A DNA stretch of 64,000 nt, taken from assembly GCA_019058365.1 (NCBI GenBank), contig JAHPZE010000002.1:128001-192000 (forward strand), in the 5' to 3' direction. The translations under genes and the position numbers were made by a program. The notes beneath the pieces are model-generated. The model was not told the origin of the DNA and made no database searches. It was given only the letters and a program-made list of their open reading frames with translations. The stretch is from Promethearchaeota archaeon (GTDB lineage: Archaea > Asgardarchaeota > Lokiarchaeia > Sigyniarchaeales > SOKP01). Position 1 is the first letter of the stretch, and each line of letters starts with the position of its first letter. Shown piece after piece: positions 1 to 8,797 of the stretch.

Positions 1-625
1 CTCCTTTAAAAACACAATGGATCCTTTTTCGAGGGATTCCAACCACAGTACAAGCAGCCATTTCATCAGTTTCTCCTACGGGTAATGGATTGCATTCATA
101 ACAAGCATTTTTATAGGGGAAAACTGTATATACATGACCATGATAACCTGATACTCCTCCATCTACTAATGGCTTTCTAAATCTTATACACTGTGCATTT
201 AAATTTAGGCGTGCATTCATCGAATCAAGACCACCAATAACAACATCCGCAGCTTGGTATAGTGCTGGATTCAAACGTTCTAGAGAAGTATGGTATCCCT
301 TAACAATAATATTAGGATTAATTTCTTTTAACTTTCGAGCTGCAACAACTGCCTTAGGTTCTCCAATCTTCGCTCCCGTAAAAAGAACTTGACGGTTTAA
401 GTTAGAATGTTCAATAATGTCTAAATCAATAAGATCAAGGTGACCAACACCGAGCATAGCTAAGTTTTTAGCGATTTCACAACCTAAACCTCCAACCCCA
501 ACTATAAGAACTCTTGAATTCTTTACCACTTTCTGGGACCATCCCTCCAAACGAAATTGGCGGTCATAAAGGTCTCTCTCTTCCACTGATAATTCTTTTG
601 CGAAAAAATCTGTATCCTTATCCAC
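1..625 (-). CDS. E1-like ubiquitin/Ubl-activating enzyme (ThiF/UBA family, Uba2/Uba3-like); 3' end runs off the window
   Basis: Not in the ORF track; translated by hand from the minus strand: (M)DKDTDFFAKELSVEERDLYDRQFRLEGWSQKVVKNSRVLIVGVGGLGCEIAKNLAMLGVGHLDLIDLDIIEHSNLNRQVLF...GLDSMNAR...CYEC...AACTVVGIPRKRIHCV. Has YDRQ, GxGGLG, SNLNRQ and a catalytic-Cys motif CT..xP...HC. GTG at 625 follows GGTGA (631-635); an in-frame ATG lies at 637. Confidence 0.93.
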   Translation of the reverse strand, partial: MDKDTDFFAKELSVEERDLYDRQFRLEGWSQKVVKNSRVLIVGVGGLGCEIAKNLAMLGVGHLDLIDLDIIEHSNLNRQVLFTGAKIGEPKAVVAARKLKEINPNIIVKGYHTSLERLNPALYQAADVVIGGLDSMNARLNLNAQCIRFRKPLVDGGVSGYHGHVYTVFPYKNACYECNPLPVGETDEMAACTVVGIPRKRIHCVFKG

Positions 626-716
626 TATTATCACCATTAATTTTTACAAAAAAAATAAAAAAAATTGAAGGGCTAAATGCCCTTATATTATATTTTATGA
701 AGAAAGTTTTATAAGT

Positions 717-1049
717 CTACCCAGCCGTACTGGCGGGGATTAATAGAATATCATCACCATCATTTAAATCATAGTCGCTTAGGGAACTATTTTCATCCAT
801 AGTAACTCCTCCACTAGAAATATGGAAATCATTAGGATCAAGACCATATAAATTTCCTAATGTTTGTTTAATGTCTCTTACTGGATTACTGTCATTTACC
901 GTTAACTTCTCTTTTTTTTCGCCAGGACCAATTGTTGACATAAAATATAAAGTCAATTTCTTTCCTGCAGAAGGAATTTTACTTGCAGGAGTTTTAGATT
1001 TTACAGGTTCATTTACACCTAAATCTTCATCAAATTCATCAAAACTCAT
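717..1049 (-). CDS. Ubiquitin-like (beta-grasp) protein Ubl-1, acidic N-tail, ends in ...LLIPASTAG
   Basis: Ubiquitin-fold pattern (DIKQTLGNLYGLDPNDFHISSGGVTMDENSSLSDYDLNDGDDILLIP), terminal Gly, directly upstream of the E1 on the same strand. Confidence 0.88.
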   Translation of the reverse strand: MSFDEFDEDLGVNEPVKSKTPASKIPSAGKKLTLYFMSTIGPGEKKEKLTVNDSNPVRDIKQTLGNLYGLDPNDFHISSGGVTMDENSSLSDYDLNDGDDILLIPASTAG

Positions 1050-1318
1050 TCATTTCACTTCTCTTTTTTTTTTAATTTCTAATTTTTATTATACTTAATA
1101 AAATGGCGTTAAAAAGATATTATAAAACCCTTTGGAATGATTTTGAAGTATTCAAGATCCTCTCCAAAAATAAAAAGGTGAAAATTAGAATTCTTAAGAA
1201 ATTATATTATAAATTGTATGAAACCTTATCAATATATATATGAATTAAAAAAAGTTGTTTTAGAGAGAATATATAATTATAAAAACCAGATAAATCGACG
1301 GAATAAAAGTAAAGGCTT

Positions 1319-1990
1319 ATGAATCCTCTGGATGATGCAGAATCTGTTGTTCTTGAATTAGTAAGGGAGTATTTAACAAAGAAAACCTTCTTTTCAATTA
1401 GAGAAATTACCTCCTATATTAGCAATAGAGTACGATACAATCCAAATATAAATGAGAATAGAATAGAGTTAGTTTTGAAGAATTTAATTAAGCGGCGTGT
1501 TATTATCCCTGGAACAAAATTAATGAAAAATAATATTATAGAACATCCTAAAAGAAATGAAATCTTCAATTTTATTAAAAAAAATCCGTCAAATATTAAT
1601 GAAATAATGAAGGGTCTAAAAATTGGCAGTAATCAAGCTTTATGGCATTTATCATGTTTAGAAAAATTTCAATTTGTTAGATCAAAACAAATCAATAATC
1701 ATAGAATGTTCTTCAAATTTGATTCAAATCCAAAGCTTGACCCATTTTACTATTATTTAAAAAAAAATATCGTTCAAGATATAATAGAATTTATGAAAGT
1801 AGAAAATAAAGCATTAAAAATCACAGAGATAGCAAATGGTTTGAAAAAGAATCATAGTACTATTAAAAAATACATAGATATTTTAATAGATTTAAAATTA
1901 ATAAAAATTGAAAAAGAAACAAATAGGAATATATTCAAATTAGATCTTAGAAAATATTCTAATGTAAGAAAATCAATTCAAGGTGAATGA
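1319..1990 (+). CDS. Multi-winged-helix transcriptional regulator (ArsR/MarR-like repeats)
   Basis: Two to three wHTH-like segments (SNINEIMKGLKIGSNQALWHLSCLE; KITEIANGLKKNHSTIKKYIDILIDLKLI). Confidence 0.8.
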   Translation: MNPLDDAESVVLELVREYLTKKTFFSIREITSYISNRVRYNPNINENRIELVLKNLIKRRVIIPGTKLMKNNIIEHPKRNEIFNFIKKNPSNINEIMKGLKIGSNQALWHLSCLEKFQFVRSKQINNHRMFFKFDSNPKLDPFYYYLKKNIVQDIIEFMKVENKALKITEIANGLKKNHSTIKKYIDILIDLKLIKIEKETNRNIFKLDLRKYSNVRKSIQGE

Positions 1991-2074
1991 GATTAAAAAC
2001 TCCAATTTTATTCCAATCCCCTTTAAATTTTAAATTAAATATTATAAATTCAGAAAATAATCTAATTAAAAATC

Positions 2075-2875
2075 ATGAGAAAAAATTATAGAATTTTAAG
2101 TATTTTCACTCTTTATATAGTGTGTATTTTGTTTTATGTCTTTTTTTTCCTATATCGCATAGAAAATACACCATTATTTCTTGTTCTTACTATTGGTAGT
2201 GTTGCTGTTTTATCCACTAGTACAATTTATACAGTTTCAGTTTTACAGTCAAAAAGTAGTCCTGTCAAGACGATAAAAGAAAAAAAATATATCACAAAAC
2301 CAAAGTCAATTCAAAAGAAAACTTTCCCTATTATTGAAGATTATATTGATGCTCTACCTTCAATAGAAGACTATGTTGAATCAAATGAGTCCTATAAAGA
2401 TATGCCAATTATTGATAAATATATTTTTTCGATCTTAAGTCAGGAAGAATTAAATAAAATTGACTTGTTAGAGTTATCAAAAATGGACAAGATATTGTTT
2501 ATTAGAGAAATGATTTACTATGATCCAAATGAGAGAAAAGAATTAATCGAAAATATGTTAGAAAACAGAGATAATATTAATGGTGTAATACCTTATACAC
2601 CACCTAAAAGTTCTATAGGAATGGAAGATCAAATTCGTGTATATATACGATCACTTTTAGAACCTGGCGAGAAAACGAAAATTATAATAATAGATACAGC
2701 TGAATCAGCAAGAGTAGTTAAAGATAGAGTTGCACTATTATTTGATTATGAACAACAAGATTTTCTCTTATCTTCCGGAGGGATATTATTAGATGAGAAC
2801 TCACAGATAAAAGACTATAGTATTGATGATGATGATGAAATTGCTTTAATTCCCTCACGAAAAAAGAAAAATTAA
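2075..2875 (+). CDS. Membrane-anchored protein (2 N-terminal TM helices) with a C-terminal Ubl domain lacking the terminal Gly
   Basis: Hydrophobic at about aa 7-28 and 34-57; the last ~80 aa align with Ubl-1/Ubl-2 (PGEK, DF.LSSGG..LDENS...DY.I.D.D.I.LIP) but end in SRKKKN. Confidence 0.85.
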   Translation: MRKNYRILSIFTLYIVCILFYVFFFLYRIENTPLFLVLTIGSVAVLSTSTIYTVSVLQSKSSPVKTIKEKKYITKPKSIQKKTFPIIEDYIDALPSIEDYVESNESYKDMPIIDKYIFSILSQEELNKIDLLELSKMDKILFIREMIYYDPNERKELIENMLENRDNINGVIPYTPPKSSIGMEDQIRVYIRSLLEPGEKTKIIIIDTAESARVVKDRVALLFDYEQQDFLLSSGGILLDENSQIKDYSIDDDDEIALIPSRKKKN

Positions 2876-2922
2876 AAGTTAGGGCAGCTAATTTTAAATC
2901 CCTTTACTTATACCAGGAAGAT

Positions 2923-3348
2923 TTAGCCAGCAATACTAGCTGGAATTAAAAGTATATCCTCTCCATCAGAAATAGTATAATCGCTTAAAGGATTAATTTC
3001 ATCCATTGTTACACCACCACAAGATAAATGAAAGTCAGCAGGATCTAAACCAAATAAATTTGCAACGGTTTCTTTAATATCACCGACAAGATTTCCATCA
3101 TTAACAGTTAATTTTTGTTTTTTCTCACCCGGACCAATAGTAGACATAAAATATATTGAAATCTTCTTCCCTCCAGAAATAATTTTGGTAGTAGGAGTTT
3201 TTGTTTCAACTTCTTCTTCAAGACTCTTCTCAAAAGGTTCTTTTACATCTTCTTCTTTATTTTCTTCAAGATCTTCATCTAATTCTTCTAAATCTTCATC
3301 AAATTCTTGTTCATCAAATTCATCGTCAAATTCATTATCAAAACCCAT
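2923..3348 (-). CDS. Ubiquitin-like protein Ubl-2, long acidic N-tail, ends in ...LLIPASIAG
   Basis: Close paralog of 717..1049 (YFMSTIGPGEKK, GGVTMDE, LSDY, DILLIPAS.AG). Confidence 0.88.
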   Translation of the reverse strand: MGFDNEFDDEFDEQEFDEDLEELDEDLEENKEEDVKEPFEKSLEEEVETKTPTTKIISGGKKISIYFMSTIGPGEKKQKLTVNDGNLVGDIKETVANLFGLDPADFHLSCGGVTMDEINPLSDYTISDGEDILLIPASIAG

Positions 3349-3541: not shown

Positions 3542-4699
3542 ATGAACGACGAACCAATTCCAAAGTATCAAATTCGAGAAAAAACACCAATTGAAAAATT
3601 TGATATGATTTCTGATAAAAAATTGCTTAAAAAATTAAAAAAAGAAAGGATCAAGTTAGATAAAGAAAAGAATGAATGGGAAAAAGTTATTAACCAAATT
3701 GAAAATTACAAAGAAAATGTTGAAGATCTTGAGAAAAAAAGAAAAGAAAAAGAACTTAAAATTAAATATCTCCTTGAACAACGAGATAACTTACAGGATG
3801 AGTTAGAACGAACGAAAAATCAAATAAAACAACAGAATAGTGATTTAGCAACAAAAGATCAACAATTTAGAGAAAAAATCAGAAATAAAAATGAGGAATT
3901 GGATCAAAAAAATGCTGAATTAGAAAGATTTCAAGAAAAGTTAGATAATTTGAGAGAGGATATTGGAAATCAAAAAAAGAATCTAGAATGGGAAAAACAA
4001 AGAACAGAAAAACGAATAAAGGAAATTAAAACAAAAATTCCAGGTATGGAGAGAAGAGAAAATGCTTTAGAAAGAACTATTAATGATTTAGAGTCTAAAT
4101 TAATGGATTTAAGAAATGAAATCAAAGATTTAACTAAAGATCGAGATAATTTAAATAATGAAATTAATACTTTAAGGAGAGAAATTAATGATGAAAAAAA
4201 TCGAATTTCTGACGAAAAGAAAAAATTAAAAGAAGAAAGAGAAAAAACTCGTTACAAAAAACAAGATATTTCTCTACAATCTCGTGAAATTGATAAGAAA
4301 AAAACAGATCTGAAAAAATATAGAGATAAAGTTGAAAGTGATGTAAATAATTTGGAAAAAAGAAGACGCCAACAAGAAGCAAGATTAAAAGAATTAGAGA
4401 GAAAAGTTCCTGCTGCAGAAAACAAATATAACTCCTTAAATAGGAAAATTCCTAATTTAGAAGAAAAATTTAGAAGACTAAATAATGAATACAGACAATT
4501 AGAAAAACAAAAAGAGACCTTGGAAAGTGATAAAAATATAATTAAACGTGAAAGAGAAAAATTAGAAAAAGATAAACAACGATTTCTAAATGAAAAAAGG
4601 GCATTTGAAAGAGAAATAAGAAAGATAACAACGAAATCTCCATCAATTAAAACGAAAACACCCTCAAAAATTAATACTAAGACTCCTTCAAAATATTAA
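3542..4699 (+). CDS. Long coiled-coil protein with a Lys/Thr/Pro/Ser repeat tail
   Basis: About 330 aa of E/K/R-rich heptads, no Walker A motif; C-tail TKSPSIKTKTPSKINTKTPSKY. Confidence 0.8.
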   Translation: MNDEPIPKYQIREKTPIEKFDMISDKKLLKKLKKERIKLDKEKNEWEKVINQIENYKENVEDLEKKRKEKELKIKYLLEQRDNLQDELERTKNQIKQQNSDLATKDQQFREKIRNKNEELDQKNAELERFQEKLDNLREDIGNQKKNLEWEKQRTEKRIKEIKTKIPGMERRENALERTINDLESKLMDLRNEIKDLTKDRDNLNNEINTLRREINDEKNRISDEKKKLKEEREKTRYKKQDISLQSREIDKKKTDLKKYRDKVESDVNNLEKRRRQQEARLKELERKVPAAENKYNSLNRKIPNLEEKFRRLNNEYRQLEKQKETLESDKNIIKREREKLEKDKQRFLNEKRAFEREIRKITTKSPSIKTKTPSKINTKTPSKY

Positions 4700-7167: not shown

Positions 7168-7407
7168 TTAAATTTTAAATTCTAAATCAAGCTTTATAAG
7201 ATCTCCACATGTATTACAAGTGATAAATTCGAAGACTTTCACTGCAACTACAAGTAATTCAAGATTTTTTCTCGGAAATTGATTTCTAAATTTTTTCTTA
7301 TAATTACAATTTGGACAGCTAATTATAGCCCTTACTTGAATTAAGTCGCTATCTTCTGACACACTTAAGGCTTTATCGCTGCTTTCTTTAACATTATCAA
7401 TTTCCAT
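7168..7407 (-). CDS. Small zinc-ribbon protein
   Basis: CPNC...CNTC pairs. Confidence 0.6.
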   Translation of the reverse strand: MEIDNVKESSDKALSVSEDSDLIQVRAIISCPNCNYKKKFRNQFPRKNLELLVVAVKVFEFITCNTCGDLIKLDLEFKI

Positions 7408-7645: not shown

Positions 7646-8797
7646 ATGAGTGATGATATATTTGATCTAGTTGAATTAGCTAAGTCACGATCATCTGTAA
7701 GAGAAAGGTTCAATGAAATAGCTAAACATAACCAATGTCCTAATTCAAACCCTAATTGTGATGATGACAAATTTTTAGCAGATCTATTAAAAGTTTTGAA
7801 AATTAAAACATACGTGGTTGGTGTAGGAGGCGCTGGAAATAATACAGTTTCACGGTTAGATGATATGGGTATTAGTAATGCTGAGACAGTAAATATAAAT
7901 ACTGATGCGCATGACTTATATTACTCAAATTCAAAGCATAAAATATTAATTGGAAAAGAACGATGTAATGGATTAGGGTCAGGCAATGATCCTTCAGTTG
8001 GAGCTGAAGCAGCAGAGGAAGACCGCGACAGGTTAAATAAAACTTTAAACGCTGATATTATCTTTTTAACTTGTGGATTAGGTGGTGGTACGGGAACTGG
8101 AGCAGCACCCATTATTGCAGCAGAAGCAAAAAAAAATAATGCAATTGTAGTTACATTTTGCTCACTTCCATTTAACTCTGAAGGTAAGCAAAGATCAGTA
8201 AGAGCTCAACTAGGTTTAAAAAATCTTGCTAAATATTCTGATTTCCTAATTCCAATTCCAAATGATAATTTGCTAGGAATTGTCGGAAAAATACCAATGA
8301 TAACAGGCTTTAAGATTATGGATGAAATTCTAATAAGAAATATTGGTGAAGTTGTAAATTTAATTAATAATTGTGGTTTAGTTAACATTGATTTTGCAGA
8401 TGTAAAAAAAACACTTTTAGAAAACCCAAATGGAAAATATCCTTCTGGTTTAGTAGGAATAGCAGAATGCTTAGGCGAAGAATCAGATTTAATAGAAAAA
8501 GCCAGGTTAGCGTTAAATAATCCTCTTTTAAAACCAGACCCGAGACAAGTGAATAGATGTTTAGTATCTGTTACTGGTGATCATAATTTAACATTATCAA
8601 AAGTTGATAAAGTTGTATCAACTATATCAAATGAGATCCCAGAAACCGCTCAATTAAAATTTGGCGTTCAAAACAAGCCTGATATGGGATCAAAAATAAA
8701 AATAATGGTCTTAGCTAATGGGCCTGTTTCACCATATGTACGAGCTGCTGTAGATTCAGATAATGATTTTACACCAACGAGCATTGTTGGCTTTTAA
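7646..8797 (+). CDS. ftsZ: Cell division GTPase FtsZ
   Basis: GVGGAGNN, NTD, GGGTGTG, T7 loop GLVNIDFADV. Confidence 0.96.
   Translation: MSDDIFDLVELAKSRSSVRERFNEIAKHNQCPNSNPNCDDDKFLADLLKVLKIKTYVVGVGGAGNNTVSRLDDMGISNAETVNINTDAHDLYYSNSKHKILIGKERCNGLGSGNDPSVGAEAAEEDRDRLNKTLNADIIFLTCGLGGGTGTGAAPIIAAEAKKNNAIVVTFCSLPFNSEGKQRSVRAQLGLKNLAKYSDFLIPIPNDNLLGIVGKIPMITGFKIMDEILIRNIGEVVNLINNCGLVNIDFADVKKTLLENPNGKYPSGLVGIAECLGEESDLIEKARLALNNPLLKPDPRQVNRCLVSVTGDHNLTLSKVDKVVSTISNEIPETAQLKFGVQNKPDMGSKIKIMVLANGPVSPYVRAAVDSDNDFTPTSIVGF

Follow-up and report, generated by a model that had tools for sequence, protein, structure and literature searches.

The ubiquitin operon of Caldiarchaeum subterraneum comprises ubiquitin, an E1, an E2, an srfp RING protein and Rpn11, and such operons are functional in vitro (PMC5654768, PMC6043591). 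The E1s of Lokiarchaeum GC14_75, CR_4 and Heimdall LC_3 have also been listed, with clusters I and II split by E2 phylogeny (PMC5654768). Among Asgard archaea, ubiquitins linked to the endosomal sorting machinery ESCRT have been described, namely HeimAB125_14240, OdinLCB4_14240 and Lokiarch_37670, and the ubiquitin and ESCRT regions are separate in Lokiarchaeota (PMC9192718). Here, we describe a locus in a 64,000-nucleotide stretch of a lokiarchaeal (Promethearchaeota) genome (the window; contig C34:128001-192000) and in the DNA adjoining its left edge. The locus encodes ubiquitin-like (Ubl) proteins that end in Ala-Gly (AG tags), together with an E1, an E2, a JAB protein and a membrane protein with a RING-type domain (Table 1).

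We predict that this locus encodes a second, self-contained Ubl conjugation system of Asgard archaea, a reading to which we assign a probability of roughly 80%. The prediction was made because the cascade is complete and co-oriented, its catalytic residues are intact, it is conserved across lineages, the Ala-Gly end is invariant and the tag has a ubiquitin fold. The E1, E2, JAB and membrane RING genes share one orientation and are tightly spaced. An earlier reading of the window from its letters alone (the sequence-only reading) had suggested that E2, E3 and JAB genes may lie to its left, and inspection of the adjacent DNA revealed E2, JAB and RING-type genes there.

All 299 distinct non-membrane domains of the tag family ended in x-x-Ala-Gly (STAG in 262), and an end kept in this manner is not a product of chance. 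The protein stopped directly after Ala-Gly in 236 of these domains and continued for 1–15 unconserved residues in 60, while 3 ran into a further unit. Head-to-tail precursors of three units (P0178) and two units (P0180), joined at Gly, were observed on short contigs without gene context. This pattern of random tails and run-on units is like that of ubiquitin precursors and therefore points to the Gly as the putative site of cleavage and activation; we regard it as the strongest sequence evidence for such a role. The sequence-only reading had placed two paralogous β-grasp proteins beside the E1, ending IPASTAG and IPASIAG, with no propeptide and no need of a maturation protease. Both ends are real, but Ubl2 lies apart from the E1, separated from it by a winged helix-turn-helix gene and the gene of a membrane-anchored Ubl-domain protein, both on the opposite strand. 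That a maturation protease is unnecessary holds for Ubl1 and Ubl2 only, and maturation is needed elsewhere in the family; one family member in five is tailed, some are polyproteins, and the operon carries an intact JAB.

In Ubl1, an N-terminal tail of ∼28 amino acids (aa), with an acidic stretch followed by VKSKTP, precedes the ubiquitin-fold domain (PF00240, 25.8 bits), and the structure model had a predicted local distance difference test (pLDDT) score of 92. Ubl2 has a long Asp/Glu-rich N-tail with VETKTP and a core that is 73% identical to that of Ubl1. The Ubl domain of the membrane paralogue belongs to the AG family and ends IPSRKKKN without Gly, and none of its orthologues seen had a terminal Gly. 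A third AG tag, which is free-standing (C16:301117-301449; L124:5118-5450), has a core 91% identical to that of Ubl1, and such orphans are frequent in the genus. The conjugatable-type AG end was also found on multidomain fusions with roadblock, longin-like, HerA-type ATPase, vWA and zinc-ribbon domains, of which the HerA/FtsK ATPase occurs in Borrarchaeum and the longin-like domain in Helarchaeales.

On sequence grounds, the AG tag is best assigned to the ubiquitin clade and is not demonstrably a UFM1 or a SAMP protein. In profile searches, PF00240 matched all 31 diverse members and outscored the SUMO-like model, the Ufm1 profile PF03671 matched none of the 31 at E 0.1 and nothing at the locus, and the ThiS profile matched one (E 0.04). 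The Ubl model has the fold of ubiquitin (Z 14.6, root-mean-square deviation (rmsd) 1.5 Å, 77 residues aligned to ISG15). The best structural matches of the model were C. subterraneum ubiquitin (the top Foldseek hit), ISG15, ubiquitin, SUMO and NEDD8; UFM1 was not among the best 50 listed, which by itself does not exclude kinship. When aligned, the tail falls in the ubiquitin register, with Ala at the place of Gly75 and, at that of Arg72, a variable residue other than Arg. Given that ubiquitin and Asgard Gly-Gly ubiquitin share this tail length, the IP-x4-G spacing is not diagnostic of UFM1 or SAMP, and the earlier suggestion that this end points to UFM1 and SAMP/MoaD was not supported. In a Ubl tree built on 81 columns, a short alignment that limits trust in it, the AG family formed one clade (93/97), SAMPs fell outside (97/97), and eukaryotic ubiquitin joined ESCRT-type Asgard ubiquitin (92/85) and not the AG family.

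UFM1 kinship was set aside for want of profile support, and SAMP/ThiS/MoaD/Urm1 membership in view of the missing Gly-Gly end, ThiS-type profile and UbaA/MoeB-type E1 and the presence of an E2. SUMO membership was dismissed on the AG rather than TGG end, the single E1 gene in place of Aos1/Uba2 and an E2 that best matches Ubc13/UBE2T rather than Ubc9. A similar first loop had raised the possibility that the AG tag is the lokiarchaeal orthologue of ESCRT-type ubiquitin, which was discarded as both occur in the same genomes and in separate clades.

The E1 is a single chain with a ThiF domain (207 bits by profile) and carries the motif AACTVVGIPRKRIHC, of the type CTxxxxPxxxxHC, in which the catalytic Cys196 is encoded by nucleotides 50–52. 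A YDRQ Arg finger, a GxGGxG loop, SNLNRQ, two CxxC zinc pairs and a helical insert were also observed. The best PDB match was the SUMO E1 Uba2 (135.7 bits), with UBA3 at 126, MoeB at 120 and UBA5 at 62, and the catalytic Cys aligned with that of Uba2. All 34 pan-Asgard orthologues retain the motif, and it is conserved in 51 close orthologues, which agrees with the eukaryote-style motif and the Uba2/Uba3-like character that had been claimed for this E1. An ESCRT-type E1 scored 122 against UBA3 and 98 against Uba2, the corresponding values of the AG-type E1 being 126 and 136. A search for longer E1 homologues gave one archaeal fusion only, and the relation to Uba1/2/3 therefore rests on motifs and scores. 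Long E1-containing frames of 800–985 aa (P0328; G281:C61), one of them named Sigynarchaeota, are likely fusions. The C-terminus of the E1 is a probable ubiquitin-fold (E2-binding) domain, the Atlas leads to UAE_UbL/E2_bind standing at 0.87, under the 0.9 mark.

As the E1 shares its adenylation domain with ThiF/MoeB, its partners might be read as thiocarboxylated sulfur carriers of the ThiS/MoaD/Urm1 type. This is extremely unlikely: the E1 lies below every ThiF/MoeB/UbaA cut-off, the operon has no rhodanese domain or sulfur-pathway gene but does have an E2, a JAB and a RING, and the genome encodes separate Gly-Gly-ended SAMP/MoaD proteins that branch apart.

The E2 has an invariant HPN, the catalytic Cys and two inserts, and its best profile matches were ubiquitin E2s of the Ubc13/UBE2T type. 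The JAMM motif of the JAB is intact, and its top match was C. subterraneum Rpn11 (CsRpn11). Five more open reading frames with JAB/MPN domains were seen in the genome (C33:97583, C12:32305, C7:87210-91540), several with long C-terminal extensions. The membrane protein carries a cysteine-rich C-terminal domain (model pLDDT 92) for which no Pfam match, RING included, was obtained. Its best 50 structural matches were RING or U-box domains, alone or in complexes (best Z 7.4, rmsd 3.4 Å, 70 residues; Foldseek E 2e-3), its E2-binding Trp is invariant, and it is similar to the small RINGs that ESCRT-type Asgard operons encode. A RING and an E2 are a textbook pair, and co-folding of the two gave a score of 0.56 against 0.21 for the best control, with runs agreeing in at least 95% of contacts and a partner pLDDT of at least 89. 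This lends weak support only; in the benchmark, the mark was reached by 58 of 80 solved and 2 of 110 mismatched pairs, and at 0.60 or below by 7 of the 80 solved pairs and both mismatches. On its modelled fold, the membrane RING-type protein is a probable E3.

The membrane E3, the membrane paralogue, the multidomain proteins with a conjugatable end unit and a single Gly end as in ATG8, ATG12 and UFM1 would also suit tags that are activated as proposed and attached, in an ATG8-like manner, mainly to a membrane lipid or another non-lysine acceptor, which would tether the fused roadblock, longin-like, HerA and vWA domains as well. We consider this improbable, given that an HPN E2 near Ubc13/UBE2T, a RING E3 and an Rpn11-like JAB constitute lysine-isopeptide machinery, and that the E1 is far from ATG7 (44 bits).

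The neighbourhoods of eukaryote-like E1s at 40 further loci fell into three kinds: ESCRT-type, AG type and a third type. ESCRT-type loci encode an R-T-x-G-G ubiquitin, a ∼335-aa E1 without the HC motif, a small RING and often a Vps4-sized AAA protein. The AG-type E1s formed one clade in a quick tree (Shimodaira–Hasegawa-like approximate likelihood ratio test 99), and both an AG locus and an ESCRT-type locus were seen in 12 genomes. No ESCRT-type E1 was recognisable in the source genome, where a Vps4-like gene lies on another contig, C46. The E1 and Ubl clades and the genomes with both loci sustain the claim of the sequence-only reading that the system is distinct from the canonical Asgard ubiquitin/ESCRT locus. 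Membership of the canonical ESCRT-linked ubiquitins was rejected on the invariant AG end, the separate clades and the Vps4-like gene lying on another contig.

Loci of the third type were observed in Hodarchaeales-type genomes (L132:10337-10657, minus strand; L134, L136, L138, L144) and encode an N-extended tag ending PDQIKGG, a 410-aa E1, a 180-aa E2 and a JAB. With 28 bits, this tag scores above the cut-off of the SUMO-like Rad60-SLD model, and it aligns over its full length but weakly (E 0.53) with PDB 1j0g, which we take to be mouse Ufm1. The tag is thereby a lead to the published Asgard Ufm1 (PMC12962969) or to the ancestry of SUMO.

A stand-alone Gly-Gly ubiquitin is encoded on contig C12 with no neighbouring enzymes (C12:107488-107740; L123:7489-7740, minus strand). 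It is an orthologue of Lokiarch_37670 that ends QAGG-I and has an apparent ATT start, and it groups loosely with the third system (87/79, long branches). A ubiquitin of this kind could be what the operon enzymes conjugate, with the AG proteins acting as Hub1-like, non-conjugated adaptors or decoys. Eukaryotic Uba1/2/3 normally read a Gly-Gly end, which counts for such an arrangement, as does the clearly non-conjugatable membrane paralogue already held by the AG family. We nevertheless judge it unlikely: the terminal Gly is invariant and has random tails and polyproteins behind it, Gly-Gly ubiquitins adjoin their own E1s in Heimdall and Hel genomes, and three genomes without the AG tag are also without this E1, yet keep the other E1.

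The AG tag was present in 193 of 400 Asgard genomes. A ten-gene order was kept in ∼40 genomes of close relatives, and the core Ubl-E1-E2-JAB-RING genes were found in Lokiarchaeia (including the cultured L. ossiferum, NEF87_002994 region), Helarchaeales, Borrarchaeum, Hodarchaeales and other Heimdallarchaeia. Their order is conserved across these lineages, but the cluster is rearranged in the family of Heimdallarchaeote AB_125. The losses are patchy, tags occur in extra copies and the fusions vary, as could also be expected of an anti-viral conjugation system like bacterial Bil/Bub, and a JAB processes Bil Ubls so that a Gly is exposed (10.1101/2023.09.26.559546). An anti-viral system is very unlikely here, as the locus holds a fixed place next to the housekeeping gene folE2 and the E1 tree broadly splits the Loki/Hel from the Heimdall lineages. 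PADLOC, moreover, returned no match for the tag, E2 or E3, and its matches for the E1 and JAB were weak and generic.

The [ST]KTP motif was present in the N-tails of 118 of 129 close and 35 of 47 distant tags, and, in 1–4 copies, in the C-terminal tail of a coiled-coil neighbour (41 of 44 orthologues). The longer pattern [IV]x[ST]KTP[AST], which was drawn up after seeing these proteins, occurred in 4 of ∼3,990 proteins, namely three tags and the coiled-coil neighbour, against ∼0.6 hits expected. Plain [ST]KTP was mildly enriched genome-wide (29 against 17.6 expected). The motif could serve as a consensus for acceptor lysines, as a phospho-site or for docking; we favour the first of these, and the coiled-coil protein is a candidate substrate or partner.

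In the proposed mechanism, the tags would be made mature, or the operon JAB would trim tails and polyproteins after Ala-Gly, as the tail pattern suggests. The E1, probably a homodimer, would adenylate the terminal Gly and form a thioester on Cys196, in keeping with the residues present. The tag would then be passed to Cys99 of the E2 via the C-terminal ubiquitin-fold domain of the E1. The membrane RING, given its fold, would draw the charged E2 onto the cytoplasmic membrane and favour isopeptide bonds to lysines on membrane or membrane-near proteins, and the JAB would take the tag off. The Ala for Gly75, the non-Arg residue for Arg72 and the E2 inserts would most likely insulate the system from the Gly-Gly systems of the cell. 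The lysine of [IV]x[ST]KTP is the best candidate acceptor, through which SUMO-style chains might grow on the N-tail and the coiled-coil neighbour might be modified, although less surely than the preceding steps. The most likely output would be the quality control or sorting of membrane proteins.

Several points weigh against the predicted AG-tag system. It is from synteny and matching clades that the tags are paired with this E1, and the same genome holds the stand-alone C12 ubiquitin and a second E1/E2 pair on contig C45. Ligand 6 of the RING is Glu in 73 of 74 copies, and its Z-scores are middling. The system is dispensable, given that it was not found in several near-complete Lokiarchaeia; with these queries, it was missing from two closed 4.3–4.4 Mb lokiarchaeal genomes, most of genus g2 and the large family f31. 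The substrates, and an output like endoplasmic-reticulum-associated degradation (ERAD), are guesses. The pair on C45 (C45:4404-7865; L122) comprises a 529-aa E1 with a large helical insert and the same CT..P..HC motif, and an E2, with no Ubl gene nearby; E1/E2 pairs of this type are kept in genomes without the AG system.

Table 1. Coordinates of the AG locus and of related proteins; positions without a prefix are those of the window.
Feature	Position	Strand	Remarks
E1, 5' half	1..637	−	whole gene C34:127372-128637, 421 aa; runs 628 nt beyond window edge
E2	C34:126769-127296	same as E1	outside window; 175 aa, HPN, Cys99
Rpn11-like JAB	C34:125945-126775	same as E1	outside window; metal site intact
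Polytopic membrane protein with RING variant C-C-C-C-H-E-C-C	C34:124732-125916	same as E1	outside window; 394 aa; probable E3
Ubl1	717..1049	−	110 aa, ends IPASTAG-stop; first gene of Ubl-E1-E2-JAB-RING run
Tandem winged helix-turn-helix protein (ArsR-like)	1319..1990	+	divergent from Ubl1; synteny in close relatives only
Membrane-anchored Ubl paralogue	2075..2875	+	two N-terminal transmembrane helices, helical middle, C-terminal Ubl domain
Ubl2	2923..3348	−	141 aa, ends IPASIAG-stop
Coiled-coil protein	3542..4699	+	C-terminal tail (4622-4699) with [IV]x[ST]KTP motif of tags
AG-unit multidomain proteins	L082:10072-11814, L083:1910-3718, L086, L111:8557-9237, L118:9691-11448, L119, L120; P0239		

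The tandem winged helix-turn-helix protein is a possible regulator. A perfect 6-bp hairpin, flanked by A/T runs on both strands, was observed in the gap between Ubl1 and the E1 (668-684) and could set a high tag-to-enzyme ratio; a promoter/terminator scan was uninformative (31 against 26.9 expected). An FtsZ-family gene (7646-8797, plus strand), divergent from a small zinc-ribbon gene (7168-7407, minus strand), lies 4 kb off the locus.

Asgard archaea are the closest microbial relatives of eukaryotes, and insulated parallel Ubl pathways (Ub, SUMO, NEDD8, UFM1) and membrane-embedded RING ligases are usually held to be eukaryotic developments. The obtained results suggest that eukaryotes were preceded by several tagging systems running in parallel, one of them with a membrane-bound ligase. 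If true, the presence throughout the phylum of a second system that has a terminus, enzymes and a membrane E3 of its own would mean that such diversification began in archaea. A broader scenario is rather doubtful, in which the common ancestor of Lokiarchaeia and Heimdallarchaeia ran at least three orthogonal Ubl cascades and the AG cascade served ERAD-like membrane-protein quality control. That cascade would have used a RING ligase in the membrane, an acceptor code of its own ([IV]x[ST]KTP, yielding SUMO-style chains), precursors like polyubiquitin and entire multidomain proteins as conjugatable tags, and its CTxxxxPxxxxHC E1 type would stand closer than the ESCRT-linked E1 to the origin of eukaryotic Uba1/2/3. 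The AG system occurs in Hodarchaeales and a cultured lokiarchaeon and can be put to direct test with five small recombinant proteins, while Gly-Gly remnant proteomics and genome screens based on Gly-Gly would overlook it.

The cluster has very likely been drawn in earlier work, since Loki and Heimdall E1s are listed in PMC5654768 and the Lokiarchaeum GC14_75 protein orthologous to this E2 (A0A0F8VF99) is in the E2 alignment of PMC9192718. The ubiquitins of the published Asgard study all end in Gly-Gly. The searchable literature, outside which most subscription papers lie, yielded no text that describes the AG end, the family as a separate one, its multi-unit precursors, the motif or the membrane-borne RING, and the AG-end motif was not found in a search of published supplements.

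Compared with known systems, the AG tag resembles UFM1 in its single terminal Gly and IP-x4-G spacing, and a membrane-associated role is plausible. It differs from the UFM1 pathway in lacking a Ufm1 profile match, in an E1 that scores far lower against UBA5 than against Uba2, in an E2 with the HPN that UFC1-type E2s lack, in a JAB rather than a UFSP cysteine protease and in a RING rather than UFL1. As in the SUMO pathway, the best match of the E1 is Uba2, and a disordered N-tail with a conserved lysine motif could seed chains; unlike SUMO, the system has a single-gene E1, no TGG end and an E2 that best matches ubiquitin E2s. Hrd1 and gp78, the membrane RING E3s of eukaryotic ERAD, consist of a polytopic membrane domain, a linker and a cytosolic RING. 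The probable operon E3 is likewise polytopic with a linker and a cytosolic RING, and the HRD1 RING was among its top Foldseek matches; its RING is, however, an archaeal srfp-type variant, and the membrane domains are not demonstrably homologous. The AG tag shares with ESCRT-linked Asgard ubiquitin the ubiquitin-clade fold, the tail register and the organisms, whereas those ubiquitins end in Gly-Gly. Unlike the C. subterraneum operon, the AG locus has a tag with an Ala-Gly end and a long acidic N-tail, an E1 with the CTxxxxPxxxxHC motif, which is missing from CsE1 and from ESCRT-type E1s, an E2 with two inserts and a polytopic membrane E3 with Glu at ligand 6. As in that operon, the same five functions stand in one cluster; the top Foldseek match of the tag is C. 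subterraneum ubiquitin, the JAB has CsRpn11 as its top match, and the RING shows the same C/H spacing as Asgard srfp.

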